NCBI GenBank assembly: GCA_963804165.1
Contig: CAWDPO010000012.1
Location: 18,604-82,603, forward strand
Length of the DNA: 64,000 nucleotides
Origin: an uncultured delta proteobacterium
GTDB lineage: Bacteria > Desulfobacterota > Binatia > UBA9968
Direction of reading: 5' to 3'
A program made the translations under genes and the position numbers. Below the pieces are notes generated by a model. That model ran no database searches, was not told the DNA's origin, and worked only from the letters and a program-made list of their open reading frames with translations. Every line of letters starts with the position of its first letter. The stretch's first letter is position 1. Shown here one piece after another: positions 29,990-59,794 of this stretch.

Positions 29990-30067
29990 CTAGGATTGAA
30001 CTGTATTCTCCTTCAAAGCACAGTCCTACGTGAGAAAAAACTGACGCGTCGTTCAGTTCAATCCTAG
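29990..30067 (+). repeat. GATTGAAC hairpin site A (complete)
   Basis: CTAGGATTGAACTG-TATTCTCCTTCA-N26-TGACGCGTCGTT-CAGTTCAATCCTAG. Confidence 0.9.
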
Positions 30068-30269
30068 TGTGGCGTCTCAGAAGTTCGTTTAAAAAGTCCA
30101 AACGATGGCAGCCTCTGAAGTTGAACTCAAATCCCCCTTTGTCCCCCTTTTTCAAAGGGGGGATTTTCTCCGTGCGATTCTCACCCCTCTTTGCCAAAGA
30201 GGGGAAGGGGAGATTTTCCGACGGAATGACGCGAGAATTATGTCGCGAACTTCTGGGACAGGACACTAG
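30064..30269. mobile_element. ~205-bp MITE, copy 2
   Basis: CTAG-bounded, near-identical to 23169-23374 and 61743-61947. Confidence 0.9.
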
Positions 30270-31728
30270 TACTACTGTGTTAATAAAATCATGCTATTAT
30301 GCATGGAAATTCGTGTAGGAGGTGAAGATCCATGCCAAAGCTTGCTGAATTCGAACGCTACATCGATCAATTGTGCGAAGTACTGGGTCATCAGGACCGT
30401 CACGCCGGATTCGCTGATTACAGCCGGGGGTTGATGCTGCCCATCGAACGCAAGAGTGTGGAACCGTTGGCGGCGCACACTGATCCGTTGCATGTGAGTT
30501 CCCAGCACCAATCGCTGCACCACTTGGTGGCAATGTCGGAATGGTCGGATACGGCGGTTCTGGAGCGTGTGCGCAATTGGGTGATGGCGCGGCTTGGACA
30601 CAAGAGCCAGTTTTATTGGATCATCGATGATACCGGTTTTCCGAAAAAAGGGGAGCACTCTGTAGGAGTAGCGCGCCAGTACTGTGGACAATTGGGCAAA
30701 CAGGATAATTGTCAGGTGGCGGTTAGTTTGTCGTTGGCCACTGAGCAGGGCAGTGTGCCGATAGAGTTTCAGCTGTACTTGCCGGAAAAGTGGGCTAAGG
30801 ATCAGCGGCGTCGGAAAAAAGCCGGCGTACCCAAGGAAGTGAAATTTCTTACCAAGCCCGAGATCGCACTGGAGCAGATCCGAGCGGCGAAAGCCGCGGG
30901 AGTTGCGGTTGGCATCGTGCTGGCAGATGCGGCCTATGGCAATGAAACGGCATGGCGCCAGGGGCTGAGCGAGATAGAGTTGGAGTACTGCGTGGGAGTG
31001 CAATCGAGCACGACGGTGTGGTTGGCGGGCACGGGGCCACTGCCTCCCAAGCCACGAAAGAAAATGGGACGCCCGCCGACGCGGTGGCGGCGCGGTGTGG
31101 GTGCTTCGCCAGGGAGTGTTAAAGCAGTGGCCGAATCCTTGAAAGCGCGCCGCTGGTACACGGTGCGCTGGCGCGAGGGGAGCCATGCGGTGCTGTCCTC
31201 GCGTTTCGCAGCGCTGCGCGTGCGTGCGGCGCATCGTGATGAAAAGCGTAAGACCCTGCGTGAAGAAGAATGGTTGCTGATCGAATGGCCACGCGCTGAG
31301 GCTGAACCGACGAAGTACTGGCTTTCGACGTTGCCCGCTGACACGCCCCTTATAGAATTGGTCAGAGTCGCCAAGATGCGCTGGCGCATTGAGAGGGACT
31401 ACCAGGAATTGAAACAGGAGTTCGGCCTGAGCCATTATGAGGGACGAAACTGGCGTGGCTTTCATCATCACGCCACATTGTGTATTGCGGCGTACGGGTT
31501 CTTGCTGGCAGACCGTCTTAAACATGGCGGCTCTAAAAAAAACTCCACTCAATCAAAAACGCCTTCCCTACCCGCAAATTACACACCTCGCGGGAGCCCA
31601 ACGCGCGCAACGTCACCTGCCCGATTCCATCGCCACGCTGCGCTACCGTCTGGCGTGGGCGATCATAAGAAAACTCCCTCGATGTCCCTGCTGCAACATG
31701 GTGAATCGGTATTAGTGACACAGTAGTA
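30270..31728 (+). mobile_element. complete IS701-family element (1459 bp)
   Basis: TIR TACTACTGTGTTAATAA / TTAGTGACACAGTAGTA, flanked by CTAG (30266-30269, 31729-31732). Confidence 0.9.
30332..31726 (+). CDS. IS701 family DDE transposase
   Basis: RKSVEPLA, IIDDTGFPKKG.HSVGVARQYCGQLGKQDNCQ, LADAAYG, RWRIERDYQELKQEFGLSHYEGR.WRGFHHH. Confidence 0.96.
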   Translation: MPKLAEFERYIDQLCEVLGHQDRHAGFADYSRGLMLPIERKSVEPLAAHTDPLHVSSQHQSLHHLVAMSEWSDTAVLERVRNWVMARLGHKSQFYWIIDDTGFPKKGEHSVGVARQYCGQLGKQDNCQVAVSLSLATEQGSVPIEFQLYLPEKWAKDQRRRKKAGVPKEVKFLTKPEIALEQIRAAKAAGVAVGIVLADAAYGNETAWRQGLSEIELEYCVGVQSSTTVWLAGTGPLPPKPRKKMGRPPTRWRRGVGASPGSVKAVAESLKARRWYTVRWREGSHAVLSSRFAALRVRAAHRDEKRKTLREEEWLLIEWPRAEAEPTKYWLSTLPADTPLIELVRVAKMRWRIERDYQELKQEFGLSHYEGRNWRGFHHHATLCIAAYGFLLADRLKHGGSKKNSTQSKTPSLPANYTPRGSPTRATSPARFHRHAALPSGVGDHKKTPSMSLLQHGESVLVTQ

Positions 31729-31844
31729 CTAGGTGAAAAGTGACAAAGGTAGTAAGATAGTAACGCTTTTGTTGTCCACGATGTAAGTTCACCCGCATGC
31801 TTCTCCGATTTAGAAAAGCATCGACGAAGCCTTAGCTGGATGCC

Positions 31845-33149
31845 ATGAATCTCCTTGTCACCAACACCCGCAACTCCCAAGCTTACTCCATCATCCGAGC
31901 GTTGCGCCCCCACTGTGAGAAGCTCGTGGTGACGATGGAGGGAAAAAACCGGCTGATCGCAAGACTTTCCCACGCGGCTAATTCCCGCGTGGTGGACAAG
32001 CGCTATTACGTCCCTTCGCCTGTAGAAGATTGGCGAGCGGGAATAATCCAGAAACAGAACACGGAGCGGGAAGAGGCTTATATCCAGGCGATTGTGAAGA
32101 TCTGTGAACAGGAGAAAATCGATACCATTTTTCCCTCTTTCGATGCCCACGTCTATGTCTTTTCCAAGAACAAGGAGAGGTTCGAAAAGATGGGCGTGAT
32201 GATCACGGTTCCAGACTACGAGGCGGTGATAACGCCGCTAGACAAGTATCGGACGATCCAAGCAGCGCAAGAGGTAGGGTTTCCTTGTCCAAGGACCTTC
32301 TTGCCGGAAAATGAGGAGGATCTCAGACGCATCGCTCATGAACTGAGTTTTCCCTTAATCATTAAGCGCCGATTTACCGCAGCGGGCCGAGGCATGCACC
32401 TAGTCAAAGATCTCGCGGAACTCTCAGACAGGGTAAAACTAAACGAAGGAAACCAAGGCACCCTCCTAATACAGGAATACATCCCAGGCAGGGTTACCGA
32501 AAGCATTGCTATTACACTGGACAAAAAGGGCGAGCTGAAGATGGTCTTCTGCAGGAAAGCTCTGTGTCGTTTAAGTCGGTTTCGCCGAATTAGGATGCTG
32601 GATTCGCCGCTATCACATCCCTACGCCGCGGATGCCGCGAGACTGATACAGACGCTGGGATGGTGGGGTGGGGTCACGGTTCAAACTGTGATTGACTCCC
32701 GCGACCACACCCCTAAGCTCATGGAGATCAACCCCAGAATTGGAGAGATACTTTGGCAAAGAATACAGGCGGGCATCAACGAGCCTTTGATGATTTTGAA
32801 AATCGCTCGCGGCGAAGAGGTCGAACCGATACGGGAATATCCCGTGGGGATAATATTTGCCGACCCAGTAGAGGACGCGGTGAGCGTTGCTATGGCCCTT
32901 ATGGATATCCTGATCTATCGGCTCCGCATTGGGATTCTGGGCAAAGAGCCTATCGACCGGAGCATTCCGGCGATGTCCCTGCGGGAACTCATTCAATCTC
33001 TAAGGCAGACCTATTTCTCTGACCGTCATAGGGTTTCCAGTCTGTATACGAAGTATTTTTTTCAGGACCCCTTCGTATCGATCATTTGGTGGTTTCAAAT
33101 CATGGCCAATCGATGGATACAGAACCGCCCAAGAGACCTTGGGCAGTAA
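31845..33149 (+). CDS. ATP-grasp domain protein (putative carboxylate-amine ligase)
   Basis: DKYRT, FPLIIKRR..AAGRG, LIQEYIPG, KLMEINPR. Confidence 0.88.
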   Translation: MNLLVTNTRNSQAYSIIRALRPHCEKLVVTMEGKNRLIARLSHAANSRVVDKRYYVPSPVEDWRAGIIQKQNTEREEAYIQAIVKICEQEKIDTIFPSFDAHVYVFSKNKERFEKMGVMITVPDYEAVITPLDKYRTIQAAQEVGFPCPRTFLPENEEDLRRIAHELSFPLIIKRRFTAAGRGMHLVKDLAELSDRVKLNEGNQGTLLIQEYIPGRVTESIAITLDKKGELKMVFCRKALCRLSRFRRIRMLDSPLSHPYAADAARLIQTLGWWGGVTVQTVIDSRDHTPKLMEINPRIGEILWQRIQAGINEPLMILKIARGEEVEPIREYPVGIIFADPVEDAVSVAMALMDILIYRLRIGILGKEPIDRSIPAMSLRELIQSLRQTYFSDRHRVSSLYTKYFFQDPFVSIIWWFQIMANRWIQNRPRDLGQ

Positions 33150-33270: not shown

Positions 33271-33325
33271 TAGGATCGAACTGTATTCTCCTTCTAACGG
33301 CAGGTCTTCGATAACTGCATGAAGC
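33271..33325 (+). repeat. GATTGAAC site B (left arm; right arm eroded)
   Basis: TAGGATCGAACTGTATTCTCCTTC-N25-TGAAGC. Confidence 0.8.
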
Positions 33326-33668: not shown

Positions 33669-33709
33669 CCCGCTATGTTAAAGAAAAGGTTTAAAAAGGA
33701 GAGCTAATT

Positions 33710-36950: not shown

Positions 36951-37481
36951 ATGGGAACTATTGCTAAGCGACTTCTTATAGCCTTTGTAATACCACTTGT
37001 CCTTGCCGGATGCGTGTCTGGTGAGGACGAGAACCAAGAGACTAAGAAGATCGCCGAGAAAGTAAAACGACAGGCCGAACTTTCCGAAAAAGCTGAGGGC
37101 AGTCAGGATATGGTGAAGGACGAGGTTACCGTCCGAAAGGGCGAGAAGGGTCAACCGATTATCGAACAGGTCGGAGAAGCCTCATCTTACGGCCCAGGTT
37201 TCCACGGAAAGAAGACTGCCACCGGCGAAAAATTTAACCAAAATGATCGAACTGCGGCCCATCCGACCCTACCTATGGGAACGCAGGCAACTGTAACAAA
37301 CCTCAAGACTGGAAACTCCGTCGATGTCAAGATTAACGACCGGGGTCCCTACGTCAAAGGGCGTGACATAGATCTTTCAAAACGTGCAGCTAAAGAATTG
37401 GGTATTACTAAGGAAGGTGTCGCTGCTGTGAAAATTGAGGCAGAAATGGCCCCCGCTGACAAAAGCAAGGAGAAGAAATAG
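36951..37481 (+). CDS. RlpA-family lytic transglycosylase lipoprotein (DPBB domain)
   Basis: Lipobox LAGC; GEASSYGPGFHGKKTATGE, TAAHPTLP.GT, INDRGPYVKGRDIDLS. Confidence 0.92.
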   Translation: MGTIAKRLLIAFVIPLVLAGCVSGEDENQETKKIAEKVKRQAELSEKAEGSQDMVKDEVTVRKGEKGQPIIEQVGEASSYGPGFHGKKTATGEKFNQNDRTAAHPTLPMGTQATVTNLKTGNSVDVKINDRGPYVKGRDIDLSKRAAKELGITKEGVAAVKIEAEMAPADKSKEKK

Positions 37482-38094
37482 CCGGGACAGGCCGAAGCAT
37501 GCCTCCGCACGTTTTCCCAAGCGAATACCTTTTCAGCGGTTGCTTTGGTGCCCGTTTCAAGCACTCGCGTATAGTCGCCACCTGCCGTCCATCTAGCCGA
37601 CTTTCCAACTGCTCTGACCACCGAATCTCTTCATCCACAGGTGAACGATCCACAAGCTGCCTTCTACGCGCACTCGACCATGGCCACTCGTGCACCGTCT
37701 CCGACAAGCCGGCACGGACCGGATTCTGTAAAACGTAACGTAAGGCAGTGATCAAGTGTTCATCACGCTGAACTGCAAAGCTCTTAAAGCGCCCCTGCCA
37801 AACATGTCCGCTGCTTCCATAATGTTTGTGATAACGACGCACGTGGCTCGTCAGCAGCCACTGCATGAACTGACTCAACGCGGTTTGGTGAGCAGGTTCG
37901 ACAACGAGGTGAAAGTGATTCGGCATCAGGCAGTAGGCATAGATGCTTATGGAAAATTTAGCGCAATACTTCTCCAAGTGCTCGAGGTAGGCTTTATAGT
38001 CGGCCTCGGCACGGAACGTCTGGCGTTGCTGATTGCCCCGAACTATGACGTGATAGAGACGGCCTGGCGCAAATACTCTTGGACGGCGTGCCAT
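37408..38094 (-). CDS. REP-associated tyrosine (HUH/Y1) transposase, RAYT; C-terminus probably truncated
   Basis: MARRPR...G..YHV..RGN, YCLMPNHFHL (HUH), WQGRFKS, YVLQNPVRAG, WPWSS; the tail after ~37555 runs into rlpA antisense. Confidence 0.9.
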   Translation of the reverse strand: MARRPRVFAPGRLYHVIVRGNQQRQTFRAEADYKAYLEHLEKYCAKFSISIYAYCLMPNHFHLVVEPAHQTALSQFMQWLLTSHVRRYHKHYGSSGHVWQGRFKSFAVQRDEHLITALRYVLQNPVRAGLSETVHEWPWSSARRRQLVDRSPVDEEIRWSEQLESRLDGRQVATIRECLKRAPKQPLKRYSLGKTCGGMLRPVPAISSPCFCQRGPFLPQFSQQRHLP

Positions 38095-39443: not shown

Positions 39444-39515
39444 GAGATTGAACTGAATTCTCCTTCTGCTTAATCCCCCGCCAGATTTCATTGACGCGTC
39501 GATCAGTTCAATCTC
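39444..39515 (+). repeat. GATTGAAC hairpin site C (complete)
   Basis: TGAGATTGAACTGA-ATTCTCCTTC...TGACGCGTCGA-TCAGTTCAATCTCA, 14-bp perfect arms. Confidence 0.9.
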
Positions 39516-40000
39516 AGGCTGAATCTGGTCGAATGCCTTCCATCGTAAATCTGACCTTTCTCCACCTGTGCTCTACGATCCGGGTGACCCAGCAAAGATA
39601 GCCGAGTTTAAGGAGACACAGGCCGCAGCTCAAGGGTTACTTTGGGAGTCCAGCGGTCAGTGCCGTGAGCGCGCAGAGCGCAAACCCACGATGTGATAGT
39701 CTTGATGAAATTCACCAAGCATGGCAGTACCTCCTTTCCAAAAATTGCCAACGCCTGACGAATATCTGTTGTCTAAATGCTCCGAGTCTATCCGTAATCA
39801 TGGCTTTCTAGTTGGTCAAGACCTGAAAGCCTAGAAGTGGCAACATGTTGAACGTTGCCGGTCTCCATGAAACCTTCCGACATACCGTATCCGCAAGCTC
39901 GCCACATTTGACAGTTTAATATAGGCGGGGTTATACCTGCGCCATTCACCGCAACAGAGACTCGCCGCGACTTTACGTGAGATTAGCCAAGGAGAGCCAA

Positions 40001-40518
40001 ATGCCTTACGCCGAATCTTTGAGAGCAATCGGTCAGTCCCTGGAAATGGTGCATATTGAGAGCTTTAGGCTGGAAAAAGAAGGCGATTCTTATGTAGTGC
40101 GGAGCGAGTCTCTAACACCGGCCCGGCTATGGATCTTGAGCAATAGTCTCGCCGAGGACGTTAGGGACTCTCCACCCCTGACCCGAAAACCACCCAGCTC
40201 ACTGTGGGTGAGGGATGGTTCTGTTACCGTCCTCCTGATATTGCAAGGCTTGACGCCCAGGAACGGAGAAAAAGACAAAATCACGGTGTCACACAAATGC
40301 CTCAGAAGACGCTAGCTCAGCTTTTACGTACTCTAGGTGAGTACCTGGATACAAAGGAGGCGACCACTTTTCACATCTCGTGTGCTCCTGATTCGATGTC
40401 GGTTGATTATCAAATGCCGGCCGGCATCTCTGAGCGCAAAGATTTTACCGTCGAGCGACTCCACAAACTCGCTTTGTACTCGAGATTCCGGCGGGTGCAG
40501 CCAACCGATTCTCACTGA
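40001..40518 (+). pseudogene. frameshifted copy of the hypothetical gene at 52569-53087
   Basis: Near-identical DNA; C4 at 40175-40178 versus C5 at 52743-52747 (may be a sequencing indel). Confidence 0.85.
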
Positions 40519-40590
40519 AGAAATTTGTGTCCGCGAAGAAACTCAAACTTAGCGCGTAATCGATCGCGGTAAGCGTGCGGCCTAACGCTG

Positions 40591-40612
40591 AAATCGAACT
40601 GAATTTTCCATC
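40591..40612 (+). repeat. GATTGAAC site D (left arm only)
   Basis: AAATCGAACTGAATTTTCCATC. Confidence 0.75.
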
Positions 40613-40826
40613 AAACCAATTGTCCTTGCTTTCACGCAACTCTGTGACTGCTGGCGCCGCTCTTTGTTTCCCACTTTGAACTTACGTGGAGGGAAAAACC
40701 ATTGTGCATCGATCATTGCGACCAGTAACTGGCGACCGGTTTGATTCCGAAAGGCAGCAACTGGCTCATCGTGAGTCTTGCTCCGCAATTTTCCAAGTCG
40801 ACACTACGCTGACGCAAATTTCGGAA

Positions 40827-43085: not shown

Positions 43086-43280
43086 ATCGTATACACTCTT
43101 TCATTGTGATCGCCTCCGCGCAAGACCGACCAAGGGCGCATCTCTCGGGCATTGTGGCCAAGCAGCGGGAATCTTTTTACAACCCCTTCGACGCCATCAT
43201 AGTCGGCTACAGATAGACCGGTTTTGGTTTTGAGGGTTTCGGTCGGTCATGATAGTCGGAGTCAAAGGGAGAATTTGAAT

Positions 43281-43304
43281 TGAAGCGTCGTTCAGTTCAA
43301 TCCT
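43281..43304 (+). repeat. GATTGAAC site E (right arm only)
   Basis: TGAAGCGTCGTTCAGTTCAATCCT. Confidence 0.85.
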
Positions 43305-43402
43305 ACGCTGAAATTAGCCTTTTCTCGCTCGATGAATCTGGTTCTCTCTACTGCCGTAAATTGCACTTTTCATCGCTTGGCTCCGCGTGGTATGTAGCGG
43401 CC

Positions 43403-44386
43403 ATGAAAAAAGCGGGCTGGGCGTCGGCGTTGGTTGCCGTGATACTGCTTGCTGTTGCAGTTATAGCCGAGGCGCAGCAGGCGAAGGTCCACCGCATAGG
43501 AGTTCTCACGCCACGCTCTCCGTCGGATAGCGCGCCCTGGCATCGGGCATTTCGAGAAGGTCTCCAGGGCCTCGGATGGGTAGACGGAAAGAACATCGCG
43601 ATCGAATACCGATACGCCCAAGGCAATCGCGACCGCCTCCCTGACCTCGCAGCCGAGATCCTCCATCTGAAGGTTGAAGTCGTTGTTGTCGTGAGTGTCC
43701 ACGCGGCCCGTGCTATTCAGCAGATCAACAAGGCAATCCCTATCGTAATGGCGTCCGCCGCTGATCCTGTCCAGTTGGGCTTGGTTGCCAGTCTTGCTCG
43801 GCCTGGCACCAACATCACGGGCTTATCGGAAATTACCCCAGAGATGGCCGGAAAGCGGCTGGAGCTGCTCAAGGAAATGGTCCCCAAGCTTTCCCGTGTG
43901 GCCACGCTTTGGGATCCAGGAAACGACGCCTCGGCGCTCAGTTGGAAAGAGGTCCAGTCCCCTGCTCGGCAGCTCGGTCTGTATCTGCATTCGCTGGAGG
44001 CACGGAGCCCCAAGGATTTTGACAAAGCGTTCGAAGACGCTACCAGGGCACGCGCTGGCGCCATTGCCGTCATGCCGGCTCAGTTGTTCGGCGCGAATTT
44101 AAAACGGATCGCGGATCTTGCGGCAAAGAGCCGCTTGCCGTCAATATGGCATCTCTCGGAATTTGTGGACTCAGGCGGTCTCGCTGCATATGGGCCAGAC
44201 CGTGCCGACCAGTTCCGTCGCGCGGCGATCTACGTGGACAAGATATTGAAAGGCGCCAAGCCCGGGGACCTACCAGTGGAGCAGCCGAAGAAGTTCGAGT
44301 TCATCGTCAACCTGAAAACGGCAAAACAGATCGGCTTAACTATTCCGTCCAATGTATTGGCTAGAGCCGACAAAGTTATCCGATGA
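43403..44386 (+). CDS. orphan ABC transporter substrate-binding protein (ABC_sub_bind type)
   Basis: Signal peptide AEA-QQ, GKNIAIEYR, IPIVM...DPV..GLVASLARPG.NITG, GAKPGDLPVEQP.KFE..VNLKTAK.IGLTIP..VLARADKVI. Confidence 0.93.
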   Translation: MKKAGWASALVAVILLAVAVIAEAQQAKVHRIGVLTPRSPSDSAPWHRAFREGLQGLGWVDGKNIAIEYRYAQGNRDRLPDLAAEILHLKVEVVVVVSVHAARAIQQINKAIPIVMASAADPVQLGLVASLARPGTNITGLSEITPEMAGKRLELLKEMVPKLSRVATLWDPGNDASALSWKEVQSPARQLGLYLHSLEARSPKDFDKAFEDATRARAGAIAVMPAQLFGANLKRIADLAAKSRLPSIWHLSEFVDSGGLAAYGPDRADQFRRAAIYVDKILKGAKPGDLPVEQPKKFEFIVNLKTAKQIGLTIPSNVLARADKVIR

Positions 44387-44391
44387 CCGAA

Positions 44392-44477
44392 CAATCGAAA
44401 ATCCAAAATCGAAAATCTAAAATGGTAGGGCGATTCCGCCGAATGTGCTGGCGAGGGCGGATAGAGTGATCAAATAA
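44392..44477 (+). pseudogene. collapsed relic of another substrate-binding-protein paralog
   Basis: AAAATC-core heptamers followed by IPPNVLARADRVIK* (44433-44477). Confidence 0.75.
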
Positions 44478-44493
44478 CGACGCGGCAATCGCA

Positions 44494-44547
44494 GGATTGG
44501 ATTGAATTCTCCTTCAACGCAATCTCGCTGAAACACATTGACGTTCG
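44494..44547 (+). repeat. GATTGAAC site F (left arm; right arm eroded)
   Basis: GGATTGGATTGAATTCTCCTTCA-N22-TGACGTTCG. Confidence 0.8.
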
Positions 44548-44583
44548 CATGTGTCCTAAGTGTATTCGCGGTATGTGCGCGTA

Positions 44584-45118: not shown

Positions 45119-45383
<265 letters not shown>

Positions 45384-45577
45384 ATCCATTTCTTTGCGAA
45401 TAGAAGACCGTCCATTTCCGCTTCTTCTCGTAGACGAAACGTGCGATTAACAGTTAACTTACTAGTTATCCCTCTACCATCTTCGCTCCAAATTATAGTA
45501 AGGCATAGCTTCCACTGACGCGGGGCCCGTCGCGAGGATGACACGAGAATCCTGTGACCTTTGTGAGTTTCGTTCAT
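45384..45577 (-). CDS. small hypothetical protein, 3' end lost in the homopolymer tract
   Basis: AGGAG RBS; MNETHKGHRI...EEAEMDGLLFAKKWI. Confidence 0.6.
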
Positions 45578-48914: not shown

Positions 48915-49133
48915 TCACTTGAATGAGCCGGGGAGGCTGTGGGTCTAGTTTAACTATTCCTTACCAATCGTCAAAATTGATTTATCGATTGGCCGCTAAA
49001 GAGCTATTGAATCAGCCTCACGGAATTCTGTGGATCGTGTCCGTGACGCCACCGCTAGTCTATCGCATTGCCCCTGGAACGGCCTGTCGCCTTTCCTCCG
49101 TAGTTAATGGACTTGTTGGCATCGGTCAGTGTA

Positions 49134-49718
49134 TTACAACGTCGGTGCCGCAGCGGTAATAACAAAGCGGTCCCGGCGATTCTTCTCCCAGCACGATTCC
49201 GTGTGTTCCGTGCATACGGGAATTTCCTCGCCGTAACTTACCGTGGACAATCGTTGAGCGGAAATTTCTAGTGACACTAGATAGTCCCTGGCCGCCTGTG
49301 CTCGCTTCGCGCCCAATCCCGCATTGTACTCGTTGGTACCGCGCTCATCGCAGTGTCCCTCGATCTCCACTCGGACCGACGGATGTTCCTTAAGCCACTT
49401 CGCATTCGCTTCGAGAGCGTCGCGCGCATCCGCCCGTAGCTCGTATCGGTCAAATTCAAAATGAATGTCTTTAAGGGGACTCGATGCCGGTGTCGCCGTG
49501 CTTTCTCCTTTTTGCAGAGCTTCGAGGCTAGAAGAAATGGGAACTCGCGACACGATTCGGGATGACCCTGCTGATGCGCCTGTAGACGCAAGTGGATTTT
49601 CGACCGTCCAATTCGGCTCTGTTGTGTATTTTGGAGTCCTAATTTCAGGTGCGCAACCGATCAGTACCAAAGCCAGAAGGCTCCCATAAGGCAGCAAGCT
49701 ACGATATTGCTGAAACAT
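49134..49718 (-). CDS. pal: peptidoglycan-associated lipoprotein (Pal/OmpA family)
   Basis: Lipobox LIGC; IHFEFDRY, IEGHCDERGTNEYN..LG.KRA, VSYGEE.P, NRR; no tol genes adjacent. Confidence 0.88.
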   Translation of the reverse strand: MFQQYRSLLPYGSLLALVLIGCAPEIRTPKYTTEPNWTVENPLASTGASAGSSRIVSRVPISSSLEALQKGESTATPASSPLKDIHFEFDRYELRADARDALEANAKWLKEHPSVRVEIEGHCDERGTNEYNAGLGAKRAQAARDYLVSLEISAQRLSTVSYGEEIPVCTEHTESCWEKNRRDRFVITAAAPTL

Positions 49719-49830
49719 CGATTTTTCCTTTCATAGCCGGGGTGATTAGGAAGAATTCTGAGCAACACCCAAGCGGCTTCATAAGACGTGGTCGAGGGAG
49801 TCGGATAACAATCCCGGCGACGTTTCCCGA

Positions 49831-50727
49831 TTACTGTGTGCCTAAGATGGAAACTTGCTTTAACTCGAATTCTCCGCCTTTATTGATAACAGCGAAACCA
49901 TCAAAGGGATCGTCGTGAGCACGGTCAACAGTCCGCATGACTTCCTTGTTATCGAACAGCACGACCATTTCACCGTCATTGTTGCGGCGCCACTCAAGCG
50001 TGTGTGGCACTCCGTCGTCCACTAATATTCCCTGGTCGACCATTTCGATGACCGCCGAACGGTTTGGCCCGAAACGCAACAACGATAAAGACGGAGTCCT
50101 TCCAGACTCAAATGCGAGCCGATATCCTGAGTTGCCGTCTTCGCCTTGGAACGGACCGAATTCCAGCCGCGACTTGCGGTCTACGTAATTCTTTATGTTC
50201 AGCTGAAGCTTGAGCGCAAACGCTTTGGTAATCCCGACCCGGGTAAATATCTCAGCTTCGGGTTTCGAGCGGCTTTGTGTATCGCCGACTGCCCGTTCTC
50301 TGGCGCCCAGCAACTCACCCAATAACCCCAATGCCGGGCCGTCGCTCCTGCGGTCGGATGTGCGGTACATTCCCGACGTAGATGGATCGAAATAAGATCT
50401 GAGCCCCGCTCCTCTTACGACCCGAAACTCACCATGTTTTACCAGCCATCGAGGATCATAATTATAATCTCCATCACGAAAATCATCGTAGAGAAGCGAA
50501 ACTTTCCACGGCCAATCGTAACGGCGCACCAGATCGCGGAGCTGCTTAGTTAGCGCGGGATTTGACCGCCCATCCTGCTCCGCTCCGCGGATCAATTCCT
50601 TCAACTGATCCACCAATTCCTGAGTCTGCCCACCCCCAACCGGGCCCGGATCCGTCTGGGCCTGGACGAAAAAAACCGGAGCTACCGTCAAAAAAATCGC
50701 AAGAGCGATGATACGGCGCATATTCAT
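49831..50727 (-). CDS. hypothetical secreted protein
   Basis: Signal peptide ending VQA; DDFRDGDY..DPRW; beta-sandwich-like C-terminus. Confidence 0.7.
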   Translation of the reverse strand: MNMRRIIALAIFLTVAPVFFVQAQTDPGPVGGGQTQELVDQLKELIRGAEQDGRSNPALTKQLRDLVRRYDWPWKVSLLYDDFRDGDYNYDPRWLVKHGEFRVVRGAGLRSYFDPSTSGMYRTSDRRSDGPALGLLGELLGARERAVGDTQSRSKPEAEIFTRVGITKAFALKLQLNIKNYVDRKSRLEFGPFQGEDGNSGYRLAFESGRTPSLSLLRFGPNRSAVIEMVDQGILVDDGVPHTLEWRRNNDGEMVVLFDNKEVMRTVDRAHDDPFDGFAVINKGGEFELKQVSILGTQ

Positions 50728-51015
50728 ACTCCCTTTCTCACTCGATCCTTCTAAAACCAAGCAAGGTGCATACCGCGAGCTAATTCATTCATGCCTAAGG
50801 AAACCTTGGATAATGTCTGGATTTCAGAGGACCAACTCTAACCAGGAATGAGCGAAAATGTACTATGCGATAAAGCCATGTTTTACTGAGCCTGCTGAAG
50901 GTAGTTGGAACTGTTAAAGGAAAAGTTCATCCCGCCAATTTTCGTTTCAGTCATCGCAACACAGGTAGCTACCAAAGAGCGAGCACATGTTGGAGCCATT
51001 GCATGAGATTGTATA

Positions 51016-51038
51016 GAGGCGTCGTTCAGTTCAATCCT
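51016..51038 (+). repeat. GATTGAAC site G (right arm only)
   Basis: GAGGCGTCGTTCAGTTCAATCCT. Confidence 0.85.
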
Positions 51039-51147
51039 GCGCCGAAATTTAGCCCTTTCCCTATCAACAAATCCGGTTTCCCGTCCGCCGTAAATAATCG
51101 TTTCCGCAATTACCGTGCGCGTGATAGCGTCCGCAACGAGGTGAGGA

Positions 51148-52152
51148 ATGAAGAAAGTTGGTTGGTCATCAATCTTGGTTGCAACGCTAGTGCTTGTTTT
51201 TGGAGTCGCTGCCAACGCGCAGCAGCCGACGAAAATCCTGCGCGTGGGGATTCTCTTCATCGGCGGGCGCGATCAACCCCACCTTGAAGCATTCAAGCAA
51301 GGCCTTCGAGAGCGTGGATACACGGAAGGCAAAAACATCGTCCTGGATTACCGATATGCGGAGGGCAAGTTAGATCGCCTTCCTTCGCTTGCGGCTGAAT
51401 TGGTTCAGCTGAAAGTGGACGTCATTGTCACTACGTCAGGAAATAGCGCCAAGGCGGCTTCAGAAGCCACAAAGACGATACCGATTGTGCTAACAACGGG
51501 AGCAGATCCGGTGAAATCAGGTCTGGCTGAGAGCTTGGCGAAACCCGGGGGCAATGTTACGGGACTCAGTATTATCGAGGAAGATTTAAGCGGTAAACGG
51601 GTGGACATTCTGAAAGAGACTTTTCCGAAAATGACACGCATGGCGTATCTTTGGCACCCCCTTGCCGTATCTTATCCCGCGGCGGATACGACGAGCGGAA
51701 ATCCATCTTATGACCAGGTAGAAAAAGCGACGAAAACTGCTGGCGTACAGCTTCTTTCGTACAAGGTTCGGACTTTGGCCGAAATCGAGAGGGCGTTTGC
51801 CGATATGCCAAAGGTTCGGCCGGACGTCCTACTAGTATTACAAAGTCCGCTGATGACTCTTAACTCAAAAAAGATCGTTGAGCTGGCGCTTAAGCAGCGC
51901 CTCCCGGGCATGTACCCAACGCTCCAATTCGCCGAGGAAGGTGGATTGATGGCTTACGGTCCTCTGATTGGCGACCTCTATCGCCGCGCCGCGACTTACG
52001 TGGACAAAATCTTAAAAGGTGCCAAGCCCGCCGATCTGCCGGTGGAACAGCCGATGAAGTTTGAACTGGTGATTAATCTCAAGACGGCGAAAAAGATCGG
52101 TCTTACGATTCCGCAGAGAGTGCTGGGGCGAGCGGATAAGGTGATCAAGTAG
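51148..52152 (+). CDS. orphan ABC transporter substrate-binding protein (ABC_sub_bind type)
   Basis: Same family motifs as 43403-44386, clearly diverged paralog. Confidence 0.93.
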   Translation: MKKVGWSSILVATLVLVFGVAANAQQPTKILRVGILFIGGRDQPHLEAFKQGLRERGYTEGKNIVLDYRYAEGKLDRLPSLAAELVQLKVDVIVTTSGNSAKAASEATKTIPIVLTTGADPVKSGLAESLAKPGGNVTGLSIIEEDLSGKRVDILKETFPKMTRMAYLWHPLAVSYPAADTTSGNPSYDQVEKATKTAGVQLLSYKVRTLAEIERAFADMPKVRPDVLLVLQSPLMTLNSKKIVELALKQRLPGMYPTLQFAEEGGLMAYGPLIGDLYRRAATYVDKILKGAKPADLPVEQPMKFELVINLKTAKKIGLTIPQRVLGRADKVIK

Positions 52153-52175
52153 TCGAAGAAAACGAAGTGACGAGG

Positions 52176-52251
52176 CTAGGATCGAATTGAATTCTCCGTC
52201 AAACCGATCTGCGGCAGCATCGAATTGAAGCGTCGTTCAGTTCAATCTTAG
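52176..52251 (+). repeat. GATTGAAC hairpin site H (complete)
   Basis: CTAGGATCGAATTGAATTCTCCGTCA...TGAAGCGTCGTTCAGTTCAATCTTAG. Confidence 0.9.
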
Positions 52252-52568
52252 GCTGAATCTAGTCGAATGCTTTCCATCGTAAATCTGACTTTCTCTACCT
52301 GTGCTCTACGATCCGGGTGATCCGGCAAAGATAGCGGAGTTCAACGAGGCACAGGTCGCAGCTTGGTAATCATGGCTTTCTAGTTGGTCAAGATCTGAAG
52401 GCCTAGAAGTGGCAACATGTTGAACGTTGCCGGTCTCCGTGAAACCTTCCGACATACCGTATCCGCAAGCTCGCCACATTTGACAGCTTAATATAGGCGG
52501 GGTTATACCTGCGCCATTCACCGCAACAGAGACTCGCCGCGACTTTTACGTGAGCCAAGGAGATCCAA

Positions 52569-53087
52569 ATGCCTTACGCCGACTCTTTGAGAGCAATCGG
52601 TCAGTCCCTGGAAATGGTGCATGTTGAGAGCTTTAGGCTGGAAAAAGAAGGCGATTCTTATGTAGTGCGGAGCGAGTCTCTAACACCGGCCCGGCTATGG
52701 ATCTTGAGCAATAGTCTCGCCGAGGACGTTAGGGACTCTCCACCCCCTGACCCGAAAACCACCCAGCTCACTGTGGGTGAGGGATGGTTCTGTTACCGTC
52801 CTCCTGATATTGCAAGGCTTGACGCCCAGGAACGGAGAAAAAGACAAAATCACGGTGTCACACAAATGCCTCAGAAGACGCTAGCTCAGCTTTTACGTAC
52901 TCTAGGTGAGTACCTGGATACAAAGGAGGCGACCACTTTTCACATCTCGTGTGCTCCTGATTCGATGTCGGTTGATTATCAAATGCCGGCCGGCATCTCT
53001 GAGCGCAAAGATTTTACCGTCGAGCGACTCCACAAACTCGCTTTGTACTCGAGATTCCGGCGGGTGCAGCCAACCGATTCTCACTGA
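52569..53087 (+). CDS. hypothetical protein with an internal repeat (LRAIGQSLE / LRTLGEYLD)
   Basis: AAGGAG RBS; intact version of 40001-40518; paralog at 60677-61126. Confidence 0.8.
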   Translation: MPYADSLRAIGQSLEMVHVESFRLEKEGDSYVVRSESLTPARLWILSNSLAEDVRDSPPPDPKTTQLTVGEGWFCYRPPDIARLDAQERRKRQNHGVTQMPQKTLAQLLRTLGEYLDTKEATTFHISCAPDSMSVDYQMPAGISERKDFTVERLHKLALYSRFRRVQPTDSH

Positions 53088-53160
53088 AGAAATTTGTGTC
53101 CGCGAAGAAACTCAAACTTAGCGCGTAATCGGTCGCGTGTAAGCGTGCGGCCTAACGCTG

Positions 53161-53229
53161 AAATCGAACTGAATTCTCCTACAACCAAATCCTGTGAGAT
53201 TTGACCGTCGCGTCGTTCAGTTCAATCCT
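53161..53229 (+). repeat. GATTGAAC hairpin site I (complete)
   Basis: AAATCGAACTGAATTCTCCTAC...GTCGCGTCGTTCAGTTCAATCCT. Confidence 0.88.
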
Positions 53230-53563
53230 GATAACCTTGTCTCCGTTCCACCAACCGTCTCCATGGCATCATTTTGACCCAAAATTTCCATTCGGGCCCC
53301 TGCTCATCCGCGTATTGGACTAAGGTCCAATAGAATAACTTTCAGTTCGTGATTAGGAATCTAGGAAGCAAGAAGGAGGGCACTTATGAAACCAATAAAA
53401 CAATTCACATTGTTGATCGCGCTGCTCGCCGCCAGCTTGGCGCTGCCGGCATTCGCACAAACACCCAAGTCTCTCTGCCCTCTGAGTAGTGATCCGGCGA
53501 GCAAACTCTTGCTGGCAACCTTTGTCTGTCCACAATCTGAGTAGCCATAAGAAAGGAACTGTA

Positions 53564-54891
53564 ATGCTTTGCTCTGTCCTGACACGTACCCGGATGTTCT
53601 CTCTTGCCCTTGCGTTGCTTGGCCTCACTGTAGCAACGCCTGGCTCTGCCCGTGATTTCGAAGTGTGGTTGGTCGATCAGTCAGACTCGTTTGGCAAAAC
53701 GTACGGTGGAACGATCTACATCTACGAAGGGTCCGATCTTAACGGTGCGAACGCCTCCTCAGCCACGCCGACGGATGTGCTCGATCTCGGTGGCTGCCAC
53801 GGCTGCACCTCTGTCTTGCTCAGACCGGCGCCAACCCAGTCCGAGCGCACATGTTGTCTTTTAATGCCACCCATAGCCACGCCATCTTGACATTCGTAGC
53901 AAGCGGACACGTCGTCGTCTTTGAGGCGGCGACGCGCACGCCGGTCGCATGTGTCAGAACCTCAGTCGGCGCCGGAGGACAGCGCCAGGCGCACGCCGCC
54001 CAGCCCACACCTGACGATTCGTACATTCTCGTGGCAAACCAGAATGGCAAACGCCTGGACCGTATCACCACAGATTACGCCACCAACACGTTCGTGCTCG
54101 ACGCCACGCTGGACCTCGCCAACGGGGTGACGCCGAATGGCGTCCTCAGGGAGTTCGCGGGGCGGCCCGACAACGCCCCCATCCTGGTCGTGCCGGACGC
54201 CACCAGTACCCTGGCCTTCGTCACGCTGCGCGGCGGTGGTTTATTCGTGGTCGACCCGAACACCACGCCGATGGAAATCCTGGCGGAGTACGATAGGACG
54301 ACGGTCCACGCCAATGGCTTCGGAGGCATCCAAGCGAACGGCCGCATGTACATCAACTCCGGAGCGGGTGGTGCTAGCACGAATCCGTCGCAATTCGATG
54401 TCTATCGCTTTCCGCTTTCAGGATATGCTGCCTCGAATCCACCCAACACCCCAGCCCCAGTGCGTGGTGTTCTCCGATGACACCGTGCCCCCAGCGCACG
54501 AACGGGACGCCCACGGCCTGGTGGCGACCAATCAAAATCGTTATATCTGGGTGTTAGATCGTGCACTGGAGTGTTGCGGAAGTGTTCGATACCTCTTCCG
54601 ACGCGCATGTGAATACGATCGCTCTCGACCACCCGTCGAGTGACCACCCCACACCAGATCTCGCGGATATTTCTCCTTCCGGTAATCGGATCTTTGTGTC
54701 TCTCAGGGGGCCCAATCCCCTGAGTGGGAGCCCACATGCTGCGACTGGCAGCGCGCCAGGACTGGGCGTTATTCAGGTCACCAGGGAGGCAAAGGCGGAG
54801 ATGCTCAAAAGTGTGGTTCGAGATTAGCAACATCGACACCGCAGGAGTGGAACGAGCCGATACTCACGGTATTCGTGTGCGGCTGAGATAA
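53564..54891 (+). pseudogene. secreted beta-propeller-like protein, split by several frameshifts
   Basis: Consecutive frames join into one protein (EVWLVDQS...HML.FN...AHAA.PTPD..YILVANQNG...AFVTLRGGGLFVV...DAHG...PDLADISPSGNRIFVSLRGP...ERADTHGIRVR*). Confidence 0.75.
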
Positions 54892-55051
54892 AACTGTCTG
54901 TTGTACTTTGTGTTGTGGACCTGGGTAGCCACTCCAGCCTCGCTCTAGCACAGGACAAATGCAGGTTGAGCGGTGAGGAATAAGACGGTTGCCCCAGTCC
55001 TGAGGACGTCCCACGCGGAACAATGGCATGCAGGCGACGGCGTTAGCCTTC

Positions 55052-55074
55052 AGATTGAATTGAATTCTCCATCA
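55052..55074 (+). repeat. GATTGAAC site J (left arm only)
   Basis: AGATTGAATTGAATTCTCCATCA. Confidence 0.8.
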
Positions 55075-55543
55075 ATCCATTCACAACGTTACTCTTCATG
55101 CCCTCCGCTCTGCTCAGTACCTGTTGCGCCATAGGCGGAAACGGAACCAAATATCGGCCGCCCGCCGTGGGCTCCGAGTCATTGTCCGCCGAAGTTTAAT
55201 TGAGCCCATTCGAACCAGATGGAAGCATAACGTTGGCCAGAATAAATTTCCGACAGCATAACCTTGCCTAGCGTACTGCTTAAATACGATTTCGGACTCG
55301 ACGGGGTCCTTACACATTTGATCAGTTCCGTAAGACGAAATGATTTCGAACAGTTCTAAAGTTTGGTGCGAAGTGCCAAGATTATGGATAAAGTTATATT
55401 CCGTTAAACTTGAACCATAGTTTTGCCTAAATGGCGGTATTGGTGCTTCAAACGTTTCTACTCGCTCTCGTTTAAAAACGTCTTCTGTCTATGCTTCCCC
55501 GCACGATCACGTGATACAGAACTCCGGAAGCCAACCAAACGCC

Positions 55544-55925
55544 CGAGACTTTTTACTGAGTAAGGCTCATTTCGATGTTTCGAGAATTCCCGAAACGTGG
55601 AACTTCCCGTCCGAGTCTGTCCTTGAACCATTTGCACTTTGAACCTTGAACCGGCGTAAGCCTTTGAACGGAACGTATCCTTCGATTAACTCAGGACGAG
55701 CGGAAGATCGAGCCGGTCATGGTGAGCCTCGTCGAAAGCCGCTCATGGTGAGCCTAGCCTGTCCTGAGGCTGCTCGAAGGATCGAACCATTGAACGACTG
55801 GAACGAATGGAACGGGCCGCAGTAATGGATAGCGGTTAAACGACTGAACGCCTTGGATGGTTCCGAGCTACGTTGAACTTTGAACCTTGAACTTTGAACG
55901 AGTTCTTTTTGCCTGTTGCCTGTTG
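55544..55925 (+). repeat. repeat mosaic (palindrome, TTGAAC arrays, GTCATGGTGAGCC palindromes)
   Basis: Shares blocks with the mosaics at 4811, 14635, 19920 and 28101. Confidence 0.88.
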
Positions 55926-55953
55926 CCTCACGCCGATCATCTCCTTACGCATG

Positions 55954-56944
55954 TTAAGATCGAATCTTGTATTTGCGCTCGAGTTCCTCCACGTAACCAC
56001 TCTCGACTACCTTTTTGAGGACGCGCTGATCCAGAAGATCCTCAACATTGTATTTCGCAATCTTGGGATCACGCAGAGCGACGATTTCCTGTACAGTTCT
56101 TAAGCCCTTTACGCTAGTAAACGTATAAGCCGTCAGATCCGCCAGAAGATTTTTGTATCCTATCTCTGCGAGCGCCCTGTCCGTTTTGATATGTCTCTGC
56201 AGAACGGCAAGGCCCCTTTCTTTTTGAGCGCGCATGATCGTACTGGCCTCGATCAGCGCCTTGATAAACTTCTCTACGACCTGCGGATTTTTTTCGATAA
56301 ACGACTCCGCACCTATGAAAGGGCTTGAAGGAAAAGCGATCCGGCTTAAATCCAAAAGAACTTTGACTCCCAGGCCCTGAAGCCTGACAGACTGCAATTT
56401 ATCCAGCGGGGCCGCGTCGATGATTCCCGTTGCCAGCGACTGGGCGATCACGGTGCTGTCGCCTATGGCCTGTATACTGATGTTGTCCTTTTGCGGGTCC
56501 AGCCCCATTTCCCTGAGCGACAACATAGTGAGAGTCCAGAGAAGGCCGCTAAAATCCTGAACCCCGATCTTTTTGCCTTTCAAATCGGCAGGACGGGTAA
56601 TTGACGGGGACACGCAGAAAATCGTAGGAGGCCCTTTCGGCGAAAAGGGACAAGAGAATTTTTAGCTTCGCCCCTTGCGCCGCGGCCGTCAGCATACTGG
56701 AAACACTCCCTCTGACAAACTGCACCTCGTTAGAGACGAGAGCCGTAACTTGCAGTGGAGCGCTACGCACCGCTACGAGATCCGCCTCTAATCCGTGCTT
56801 GGTAAAAATCCCTTCCTCTTTGGCGAGCCACACAGGAGTCCCTGCCGCAGACACACCGGAATAGGCAATTTTGATTTGCTCAGCGTTCACCTGCACGGCA
56901 AATGTTGTCAGGGCCAGGATCAGCCAGACCTTTTTGGCAAACAT
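55954..56944 (-). pseudogene. NMT1/SsuA-type ABC substrate-binding protein with one frameshift near 56615
   Basis: Signal peptide, PVWLAKEEGIF.KHGL, then SPSITRPADLKGKKIG in another frame; may be a sequencing indel. Confidence 0.85.
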
Positions 56945-57404
56945 AGCGAACCTCCTCGCTCGGATTATTGAGGCAAATTATTCAGCAACCACGCTATTTC
57001 GCGTCAATGCAGCCTGTCAAGCCAAACTTGCGGCCGAAAAAGCGGACCAGAGTTTAGTGGATCCAGAAAGCGCGAGGAAATTAAACAGCCGCGATCGAGA
57101 TAGGCCGCTCAAGTCAGTCACGACGCCGCGGAATCCTTCGAACCGCTAGTCGAGCGTTTCCTGGTGAACGGAAAAAGCAGCGCTAATTCAAGGCCGGCTC
57201 AAGAGTGTGTAGAGAAGTGAAATTCTGACCACGTGATCTTCCCAATCCTCAATAACAGCAGCGAACAAAAGTTTCAAGATTGGTTAGATTAGGATTAGAA
57301 ACCCCGCGCCCTGCCCTTTTCCCGTGCGTCGCAGATCAATCAGGCAAACTACGGACCTGTTGCAGGACAGGGCATGCGTCAGAATCGGATAAGGAGGTAA
57401 AGCT

Positions 57405-58180: not shown

Positions 58181-58297
58181 GTTGACACACGAGGACGCAT
58201 AAGAGCGCTCTTGGTTAACCGCAGCTCCAGGTAGAATCGGCACGGTGGCGGTGACCCCCATTTATCAAAGCCTCGGGACCAAGGAAGAGAAACGGGC

Positions 58298-58696
58298 ATG
58301 AAGAAGAGCGGGTCGCAGAAAAGCAAGTCTCCTTCTCAGCTGATAGACGCGAGAATCAAGGAGCTAGGCGACTGGCGGGGCGAGATGCTCAGCCGGCTCC
58401 GTACCTTAGTCAAGGAAGCCGATCCCGAAGTCGTCGAGGAGTGGAAGTGGAGAGGGGTTCCGGTGTGGTCGCACGACGGATTGATCTGCACAGGCGAGAC
58501 TTACAAGAACGTCGTGAAGATGACCTTCGCCAAAGGGGCGGCTCTGAAGGATCCTTCGGGCCTCTTCAACTCCAGTCTTGACGGGAACACAAGGCGTGCC
58601 ATCGACTTCCACGAGGGCGAGAAGATAGACGAGGAGGCGTTGAAGACTCTCGTTCGCGCCGCCGTGACCCTGAACAAGTCCACAGCCCAAAGCTAA
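58298..58696 (+). CDS. DUF1801 (YdhG-like) protein
   Basis: LGDWRGE.L.RLR, EEWKWRGVPVW...G.ICTGETYK..VK.TFAKGA.L.DP.GLFNSSL.GN.RRAID. Confidence 0.92.
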   Translation: MKKSGSQKSKSPSQLIDARIKELGDWRGEMLSRLRTLVKEADPEVVEEWKWRGVPVWSHDGLICTGETYKNVVKMTFAKGAALKDPSGLFNSSLDGNTRRAIDFHEGEKIDEEALKTLVRAAVTLNKSTAQS

Positions 58697-59033
58697 TCCA
58701 CAGAATGGGGATAGGCCGGATGGCCCGCCTTTCGACGCCTAACAACGCGTTCCACTCGGGCATTAGGCGCACCTACACTCGGCTCTCCGATGAATTTTTG
58801 GAGCACATACGAGGAGAGTGGAAAGGCGGTCGCCGAGGCGTCCGTGAGGCGGCGGATCATTTTGGCCCTGGTGGACTTACTCGAAAGTCAGCCTGCAGGT
58901 GTTATCGCGTAAGGGTTAGGTGGGGTTAAAGCTTTAAAGTGCAACGTTTGCCCCGGTTCAAGTTTGATGTGCAACTCGCGCCTAAGAAAGCCAGTGCAGG
59001 GGACGCCGCGCGGCGGCGAGAGGAGACTAAAAC

Positions 59034-59645
59034 ATGAAGGTTCTTATCGTCTATTATAGCACCTACGGCCATGTCTACCGTATGGCTACCCTTGTTGCCG
59101 AAGGTGTTAAAGAGATTCCGGGCGTCCAGCCAGTGATCCGGACAGTGCCCGAACTCATACCGAAATCCGTGATCGATTCTCACGCGGACATGAAGGCCGG
59201 AAGGGAGATGCAGCAGGACGTGCCTTTGGTCACCATGGATGATTTCCGCGAAGTGGGTGCCATTGCTTTCGGTACTCCGACTCGCTTCGGAAACGTCGCG
59301 GCACAACTCAAGAACCAGATCGACCAGCTGACGTCACTCTGGCTCAAGGGAGAACTGGAAGGCAAGCCGGCTGGTGTCTTCGTTGCCACCAGCAGCCTGC
59401 ACGGCGGACAGGAAACGACGATTCTGACGCTAATGGCGCCACTGCTCCACTTGGGGATGATTCTCGTCGGTGTCCCATATTCCACTCCGGAACTGTTCAC
59501 CACGCAGGGTGGCGGCTCACCCTATGGTCCGGGGCACGTCGCGGGAGATGATAACAAGCGCCAAATCGACGAACAGGAAGCGGCGATCTGCCGCGCTCTG
59601 GGTCGCCGTCTAGCAGTAATCGGTCTGAAGCAGCAACAAAGCTAA
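59034..59645 (+). CDS. wrbA: NAD(P)H:quinone oxidoreductase WrbA
   Basis: YYSTYGHV, FGTPTRFGN, LW.KG.L.GK, HGGQETT, GGSPYG. Confidence 0.93.
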   Translation: MKVLIVYYSTYGHVYRMATLVAEGVKEIPGVQPVIRTVPELIPKSVIDSHADMKAGREMQQDVPLVTMDDFREVGAIAFGTPTRFGNVAAQLKNQIDQLTSLWLKGELEGKPAGVFVATSSLHGGQETTILTLMAPLLHLGMILVGVPYSTPELFTTQGGGSPYGPGHVAGDDNKRQIDEQEAAICRALGRRLAVIGLKQQQS

Positions 59646-59726
59646 CGGACAAATACAAGTCGCTGCCTAACATGGCCGTAGAGCCGATGCGCCGGAGCCT
59701 GCGGTCATGGCCAGTGTTAAGTTTAT

Positions 59727-59794
59727 AATTGAATTGAATTCTCCTTCTGCTTAATCCCGTCAGATTTCATTGAAGCGTCGTACAGTTCCATCCT
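59727..59794 (+). repeat. GATTGAAC hairpin site K (complete)
   Basis: AATTGAATTGAATTCTCCTTC-TGCTTAATCCCGTCAGATTTCAT-TGAAGCGTCGTACAGTTCCATCCT; loop nearly the same as site C. Confidence 0.88.

Follow-up and report, generated by a model that had tools for sequence, protein, structure and literature searches.

Seventy-base double-core palindromes around gene modules of a Binatia genome look like recombination sites of an Xer-type recombinase encoded inside the site in relatives

Introduction

Integrons are, to our knowledge, the main general platform for stacking promoterless gene cassettes by site-specific recombination, and pdif modules are a second, plasmid-borne case. The attC site of an integron cassette is laid out as R''-L''-variable-L'-R'. 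pdif modules, as found in Acinetobacter, have alternating inverted sites, depend on the host enzymes XerC and XerD and occur mostly on plasmids; dif itself is an 11-6-11 site (arm, central region, arm), lox a 13-8-13 site. Here we analyse a stretch of 64,000 nucleotides (the window) from an uncultured delta proteobacterium of the Binatia, corresponding to positions 18604-82603 of contig CAWDPO010000012.1 (C12) in a genome of 7.5 Mb that comprises 46 contigs and is 81% complete. The window carries eleven copies of a ~70-bp palindromic site that brackets gene modules. The sites probably mark an undescribed gene-cassette system, the enzyme of which was not found in the window's genome, and they look like the recombination sites of an Xer-type recombinase whose gene sits inside the site in relatives.

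The locus resembles integrons, and clusters of attC sites lacking integron integrases (CALINs), in its co-oriented arrays of diverse small cassettes between ~70-bp imperfect palindromes, in the four-box build of these palindromes with strong outer boxes, weak inner boxes, non-complementary spacers and a variable centre, and in the combination of a tyrosine recombinase, orphan arrays and insertion sequences (ISs) that target the sites. It differs from them in that the boxes measure 13 bp instead of the 7 bp of attC, with a core consensus one position off, and in that the recombinase is Xer-like and encoded inside the site, whereas the integrase gene of integrons lies divergently beside attI. 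Moreover, the cassettes have promoter-like leaders of their own, unlike the promoterless cassettes of integrons, and single-strand folding and extrahelical bases, which are features of attC, are not evident for the sites described here. With the pdif modules of Acinetobacter the locus has in common that dif-format sites (arm, 6 bp, arm) bound the modules and that the enzyme belongs to the Xer family, but here the sites are co-oriented and lie on the chromosome, each is doubled into two cores that differ in their central regions, and a dedicated recombinase gene goes with them.

Results

The complete site consists of two tandem cores

An earlier note on this DNA had described the site as a left (L) arm and a right (R) arm around a variable spacer. 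Parsing the site into boxes resolved its ~70 bp into the series a, a', a, a' (a1, a'1, a2 and a'2), built from a = GGATTGAACTGAA and its complement, which forms two tandem 13-6-13 cores lying 3-8 nt apart, core-L (a-TTCTCC-a') and core-R (a-GCGTCG-a'). Listing the half sites revealed that R-only sites are complete short palindromes, such as AATCGAACTGAA-GCGTCG-TTCAGTTCAATCC, and that the same holds for some L-only sites, which read GGATTGAACTGAA-TTCTCC-TTCAGTTCAATCC, indicating that a complete site is made of two such cores in tandem. The outer boxes are near-perfect and the inner boxes weaker. Of the 13 positions of the two inner boxes, 8.1 and 8.0, respectively, agree with the a'/a consensus across 25 distinct complete sites, compared with 3.2 ± 1.6 for random 13-mers. 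In the alignment of these 25 sites TTCTCC is invariant, as are the bases G, G, T and G of GCGTCG, the other two bases of which are at least 90% conserved. Each core thus has the simple format of a tyrosine recombinase site, with inverted arms of 11-13 bp around a 6-bp central region, so that the lack of a dif pattern noted earlier is true of the sequence and not of the architecture. The a' box has 8 of 11 positions in common with an XerD-arm motif, and a search for a canonical dif with this 11-nt motif returned core-R copies as three of the eight best hits and no clear chromosomal dif. The outer boxes ATTGAAC and GTTCAAT are each one position off the attC pattern RYYYAAC/GTTRRRY, in line with the earlier statement that the sites do not match it.

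When folded singly, each complete site gives a long imperfect hairpin because two cores stand in tandem, and the boxes of the single-strand fold (stem, 6x6 bubble, stem, loop) are arranged as in integron attC sites. Of the fold proposed before, the long hairpin can be kept, and the 5x5 bubble with inner stem is better described as the two 6-nt central regions TTCTCC and GCGTCG. RNAalifold, applied to the alignment of the 25 sites, yielded a consensus stem of only 6 bp with zero compensatory pairs. Counting over 7 outer positions did not support the reported co-variation of outer bases: 4.75 positions pair within sites and 4.53 within modules, versus 4.42 ± 1.15 for random L/R pairs. Since each half is an ordinary double-stranded 13-6-13 core of the dif/lox format, a folded single strand would not be needed for use of the site, which could be recognised as double-stranded DNA.

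Sites of the window and of the whole genome

At up to 3 mismatches the L arm and the R arm have seven matches each in the window, all on the + strand, with 0.00 expected from shuffles. Site I has 4 mismatches and site D is degenerate; including both, all eleven sites were placed by direct reading, profile search and box parse, so that the number of copies, their positions, their common strand and their division into five complete, four L-only and two R-only sites were confirmed, as was the rule that every R arm is followed next by an L arm. Arm matches together with the box parse define the complete sites A (29993-30064, core-L and core-R separated by 8 nt), C (39445-39514), H (52179-52248) and K (59726-59793, with the weakened outer arm TACAGTTCCATCC), and an R-arm match with the box parse defines the complete site I (53161-53228). 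Sites E (43272-43303, AATTTGAATTGAA-GCGTCG-TTCAGTTCAATCC) and G (51006-51037; R-arm match, box parse), formerly labelled R-only half sites, are each a full 13-6-13 palindromic core, namely a lone core-R. Site B (33273-33325) comprises core-L, the middle and an a2-like box and diverges where GCGTCG is expected to start; site F (44494-44551) comprises core-L, the middle and a2 and diverges at the boundary between a2 and the central region of core-R. Site D (40591-40621; profile search, box parse) is a degenerate core-L with the central region TTTTCC, and site J (55052-55082; L-arm match, box parse) a core-L with a shortened inner arm. All eleven are on the + strand. Between sites F and G, at 45120-45384, 189 G are followed by 52 A and these by 21 G, which looks like a sequencing or assembly artefact, and the contig may be a false join at this place.

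The whole genome contains 52 L arms (up to 4 mismatches, 29 on the + and 23 on the - strand) and 65 R arms (up to 3 mismatches, 35 + and 30 -), which make up 28 complete sites and 34 modules extending from an R arm to an L arm over 0.6-4.5 kb. Thus, the uniform orientation seen before is a property of arrays and not of the genome: arms occur on both strands, yet are co-oriented inside every cluster. Runs of at least two sites are polar, the last site being R-only in 0 of 14 and the first L-only in 2 of 13.

An Xer-like recombinase gene is nested in the sites of relatives

In three relatives an open reading frame (ORF) for a tyrosine recombinase of 307 aa lies between a1-TTCTCC and GCGTCG-a'2, with two copies each in G515 and G512 and one copy, interrupted by one stop codon, in G018; a further relative, G504, keeps the R side only. 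Across Binatia-type genomes and soil metagenome contigs the protein measures 301-307 aa. The 307-aa recombinase scores 205, 201 and 192 bits on the NCBIfam models of XerC, XerD and XerA, respectively, all below the models' own cut-offs, and 65 bits on the integron-integrase model, the cut-off of which is 265. XerD is its closest relative of solved structure (E = 2e-43), and it is 29% identical to the orfA protein of IS91-like elements.

The coupling of gene and site was also evident in metagenomes, where our scan returned 80 loci, of which the 50 near full-length ones were evaluated and the 30 partial ones left out. Among loci with at least 65% identity, the R arm was located 9-10 nt past the stop codon of the recombinase in 29 of 36 loci and the L arm 48-53 nt (39 nt once) before its start in 22 of 37, compared with 1 of 10 and 0 of 10, respectively, below 65% identity. 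Soil metagenomes hold more than 100 clusters of the family at 90% identity, mostly on short contigs and named only XerC/XerD-like by their sources. The earlier note had placed the sites under an enzyme that acts in trans and that it could not name; action in trans is plausible, and the candidate is this Xer-like recombinase with its gene embedded in the site in relatives.

Listing the recombinase genes of the window's genome gave no such enzyme. The top score on the integron-integrase model TIGR02249 was 104.9 bits (cut-off 265), serine recombinases had 0 matches, and genes of Xer type are present as host genes. Y1_Tnp genes occur at 18 places, 16 of which are without an a-box within ~1.5-1.8 kb, and repetitive extragenic palindromic (REP) elements with REP-associated tyrosine transposases (RAYTs) were rejected on this basis. 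The two places with an a-box-like match are site C of the window and a single hit on C39. The gene near site C, for an IS200-like Y1 transposase of 228 aa (37408-38094, - strand), lies 1.4 kb upstream and shows no link to the sites.

Integron integrases do exist in this lineage, 32 of the 121 genomes of the order having a match above the TIGR02249 cut-off (e.g. G018:C6:42134-43036, G518:C1:45987-46880 and on G014:C15). No site was found near the IntI gene in the stretches fetched from five genomes (seven regions, ~6-20 kb per side), one of these regions holding an attC-like inverted repeat, GTCTAAC...GTTAGAC, and none of the three regions scanned for a repeat array beside the integrase gene (in G018, G518 and G459) had one. 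Within the genus integrase matches occur in 7 of 18 genomes with sites versus 7 of 12 without. On G512:C23:70760-80000 two sites that bear the recombinase flank a gene for 354 aa, and an integron integrase gene in the same orientation is situated ~5 kb upstream of them.

Sequences break at the right arm

Comparing 36 R arms with their flanks on metagenome contigs, always between different contigs, gave 19 pairs with at least 93% identity in the 150 nt that precede the R arm. Past the arm, 12 of these pairs fall below 50% identity within 0-4 nt, and the other 7 stay alike. Inside the genome, recently duplicated units likewise extend from R arm to R arm, the H-I unit of the window recurring on C20 (1009 bp, 97.4%) and a unit of C21 on C23 (1521 bp, 99.4%). 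The breakpoints expected inside the site in the earlier note hence fall at the R arm. Furthermore, arrays keep the a2 box at their right ends and diverge at or after the central region of core-R (sites F and B, C10_49585, C18_47613, C7_13985 and C23_250514), which is where a tyrosine recombinase would cut. R-arm switches, R-to-R duplicates, right-end divergence and run polarity together agree with cassettes extending from each core-R to the following one.

Reads and contigs gave weak joints only and no excision circle or empty site was seen in them. Of the words sampled from 49000-57000, a fraction of 0.23 at most is present in the 20 soil runs, and the contigs of four runs provide pieces over 49000-53270 and almost no depth on 53272-55400. 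Joints resting on single contigs (52151>53166, 52077>55054 and one contig leading from 53209 back to 51019) have sides of 22-32 nt at 90% likeness, possibly derive from other organisms and are not counted as evidence.

The sites are patchily distributed

Allowing up to one mismatch, the 18-mer of the R arm is present in 45 of the 121 genomes of the order at 0-50 copies, in 43 of the 87 genomes of the window's family and in 0 of the 28 of the sister family, and five genomes of the same genus that are at least 95% complete are without an R arm. A phylum-wide sample had it in 6 of 401 genomes, with single one-mismatch hits outside the window's genome. Synteny with 40 relatives revealed no conserved neighbourhood. 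Genomes G005, G490 and G501 enter only the tallies of synteny, R-arm distribution, Y2 and integrase counts. The titles of public contigs with complete sites name Candidatus Binatia or an "uncultured delta proteobacterium", apart from a few short contigs binned elsewhere. This patchy distribution is as for mobile DNA.

Modules, leaders and cargo

Six modules are bounded by sites in the window, all on the + strand. Module E-F (43304-44493) consists of a conserved leader of the substrate-binding-protein (SBP) type and an ABC_sub_bind (PF04392) gene ending at 44386, and module G-H (51038-52178) of an SBP-type leader and a PF04392 gene at 51148-52152, in agreement with the SBP label given to both before. 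Module H-I (52249-53160) has an ORF for 172 aa (52569-53087) without a family, and module C-D (39515-40590) is a diverged copy of it with split ORFs (829 bp, 97.6% identity). The ATP-grasp gene (31845-33149) formerly assigned to module A-B (30064-33149) is present, but Pfam and blastn identified in addition a 207-bp miniature inverted-repeat transposable element (MITE, 30064-30270) and a DDE_5 transposase gene (30332-31726). Module I-J (53229-55051), on the other hand, lost its beta-propeller label, as none of its three overlapping ORFs has a Pfam family.

Genome-wide the 34 modules hold 61 non-overlapping ORFs, 50 of which run forward, co-oriented with the sites. PF04392 genes account for 22 of the 61 ORFs and occur in 14 of the 34 modules; the genome has 154 matches of this family. 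Other cargo includes a TIR-methyltransferase fusion, GNAT, SGNH hydrolase, TenA, a lipocalin-like protein, methyltransferases and an acyl-CoA dehydrogenase. The cassette gene for the TIR domain fused to a methyltransferase (C5:13199-14872) adjoins a GNAT/FeeM-like gene and is possibly a defence or signalling cassette. PF04392 is massively expanded in tandem on C6 (1-34000), C37, C38 and C16, with many fragments and most copies lacking a site; as the short spacers of the large array on C6 have none, the site is not a general feature of this family.

Binding-protein modules begin with one common leader after the R arm. A second leader, covering ~230 nt after core-R, precedes several unrelated cargo genes (copies at C24:175640-175900 and C21:5539-5800 as well as on C15, C9, C10, C23 and C43) and contains three GAGATAGGC boxes and the promoter-like pair TTGACA-N17-GATATT, with a conserved stretch, CACTTAATAGTTAG, ahead of the start codon. 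Unrelated cargo genes also have a ~100-nt 3' tail before the L arm in common. Rfam gave 0 matches in 132 kb, and thus none for the sites or the leader.

Insertion elements at the sites

Elements of the IS91 type, with a tyrosine recombinase (orfA) and a Y2 transposase, adjoin the arrays, but the sites serve them as insertion targets, three times at one position of the a' box (TT^CAGTTCAATCC): twice in core-L (C23:251690-254230 and C23:259585-262121) and once in core-R (C24, near 174618). They do not co-occur with sites, G018 having 25 arms and no Y2 match, and IS91-like (IS91/ISCR) elements were rejected as movers of the modules. The arms of the hairpin at their right end resemble the a box. 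An IS110-family element follows an L arm on C26; IS110 genes are common and otherwise untied to arrays. The 207-bp MITE that abuts the R arm of site A has at least 25 copies in the genome at 94-99% identity, related in sequence to the terminus of a DDE_5 (IS701-like) element. At three sites (C23:240674, C23:267814 and C14:163749) core-L is followed by one and the same sequence, GTCCGCCTTT(T)GTCCG..., probably the end of another insertion element. L-only sites are thus copies of core-L, often cut by insertion sequences, and many of them are complete sites that have been broken.

Discussion

We consider it reasonably probable that the palindromes are composite double-core sites of a dedicated Xer-family tyrosine recombinase and bound gene cassettes, in keeping with the earlier view of recombination sites around gene modules. 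A cassette would consist of core-R, a leader with its own promoter, one or more genes, a 3' tail and core-L. Two directly repeated cores of one kind (R x R or L x L) would recombine and release a circle that holds a single cassette together with one complete site, with the site-nested recombinase as the presumed catalyst and mover of cassettes and with circles as intermediates. In the reverse reaction the circle would enter any core of that kind or a weak secondary site, so that co-oriented arrays build up. Owing to their different central regions, the ends of one cassette should not react with one another, and a double exchange (R x R plus L x L) could swap a cassette. This arrangement resembles recombinase-mediated cassette exchange (RMCE) with heterospecific lox or FRT sites, where a cassette likewise lies between two cores with the same arms and incompatible central regions; RMCE is engineered, whereas the present system would be natural, with exchange in it deduced. 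Since no cognate recombinase was found in the genome, the arrays of the window would be orphans, partly decayed and colonised by insertion sequences, like attC clusters without an integrase.

Several observations weigh against a cassette system of this kind. The contigs of the window's genome lack a recombinase of the site-nested type, the best proteins being 30-40% identical and of the Xer or IS91-orfA kind, and a close homologue is encoded in 7 of the 121 genomes of the order, with sites in 45. Arrays start with a complete site in 7 of 13 cases and with a lone core-R in 4 of 13. Most of the 12 switching pairs have the recombinase gene upstream of the R arm and would equally fit an IS-like element ending at the a' box, the duplicates from R arm to R arm could arise by homologous recombination alone between 70-bp repeats, and neither the reads nor the contigs showed an excision circle or an empty site.

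The main rival proposes that a, the recombinase gene and a' form an IS-like element bounded by 13-bp terminal inverted repeats and moved by its tyrosine recombinase. The 70-bp sites would then be MITE-like forms of it that arose by internal deletion, and the genes in between would be ordinary. We regard this rival as unlikely, although it deserves a real share of belief. The outer a and a' boxes indeed form perfect inverted repeats, gene-bearing and empty forms coexist, the flanking sequence changes precisely where the a' box ends on its outer side, the copy number among relatives varies from 0 to 50, and the recombinase clusters lie mostly on short contigs, as repeats do. Like MITEs and REP elements or REPINs (paired REP sequences) with RAYTs, the sites are short, palindromic, multi-copy and intergenic, but unlike them they show no target duplication at any of the 28 complete sites, their orientation is strictly tied to genes (50 of 61 module ORFs) and half sites stand at the ends of modules. 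Isolated modules with a lone core-R at the 5' and a core-L at the 3' end (E-F, C10 M08 and C12 M09), the absence of runs with an R-only last site, duplicated units that span two R arms with an entire module inside, and unrelated cargo with a common ~230-nt leader and ~100-nt 3' tail beside the cores all argue against an IS-like unit.

We see still less reason to take the sites for an unusual class of attC, with arrays that are attC clusters without an integrase and are recombined as folded single strands by the integron integrases of the lineage. The four-box layout mirrors R''-L''-variable-L'-R', the outer boxes are each one position off the attC pattern and true integron integrases occur in the order, yet the window's genome has none, no site was found in the stretches fetched around IntI genes, one of which instead has its own attC-like repeat, and within the genus integrase matches do not follow the sites. 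The gene embedded in the site is Xer-like and not an integron integrase, and the cassettes bring promoter-like leaders, so that this explanation appears improbable. Least credible, and in our view very improbable, is that the palindromes are regulatory or RNA elements (a terminator or operator with a promoter) spread by paralogous duplication, mainly of PF04392. L arms do start ~20 nt past stop codons, R arms precede conserved leaders, one class of which contains TTGACA-N17-GATATT, and PF04392 is both abundant in the genome and frequent in modules; however, the large tandem PF04392 array on C6 is without a site, the same site flanks unrelated genes, the identical 18-mer occurs in several genera and is absent from close relatives, and a recombinase gene is nested in the site. 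Neither the hairpin nor the R arm is followed by a T-run and no listed Rfam family matches, and the sites are neither canonical attC sites nor REP/RAYT elements.

Literature searches, covering titles and abstract openings, gave no description of such a site or of a recombinase nested in it. If the double-core sites serve a dedicated Xer-family recombinase, they would represent a third platform for flexible gene arrays, distinguished by another recombinase clade, a doubled dif-format site, a nested enzyme gene and self-expressed cassettes. The compact recombinase and its two 32-bp cores with apparently incompatible central regions could serve genome engineering. For annotation, the sites account for one kind of repeat and assembly break in Binatia-type genomes, and "XerC/XerD" calls of this kind should be taken as accessory enzymes and not as those of chromosome resolution. 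More tentatively, and with somewhat less than even confidence, we propose an undescribed integron-like cassette platform of soil Binatia, in which an Xer-family recombinase would be encoded inside its own double-core site and self-promoted cassettes between incompatible cores would be captured, stacked and exchanged, a process that may drive the expansion of substrate-binding proteins in these bacteria.

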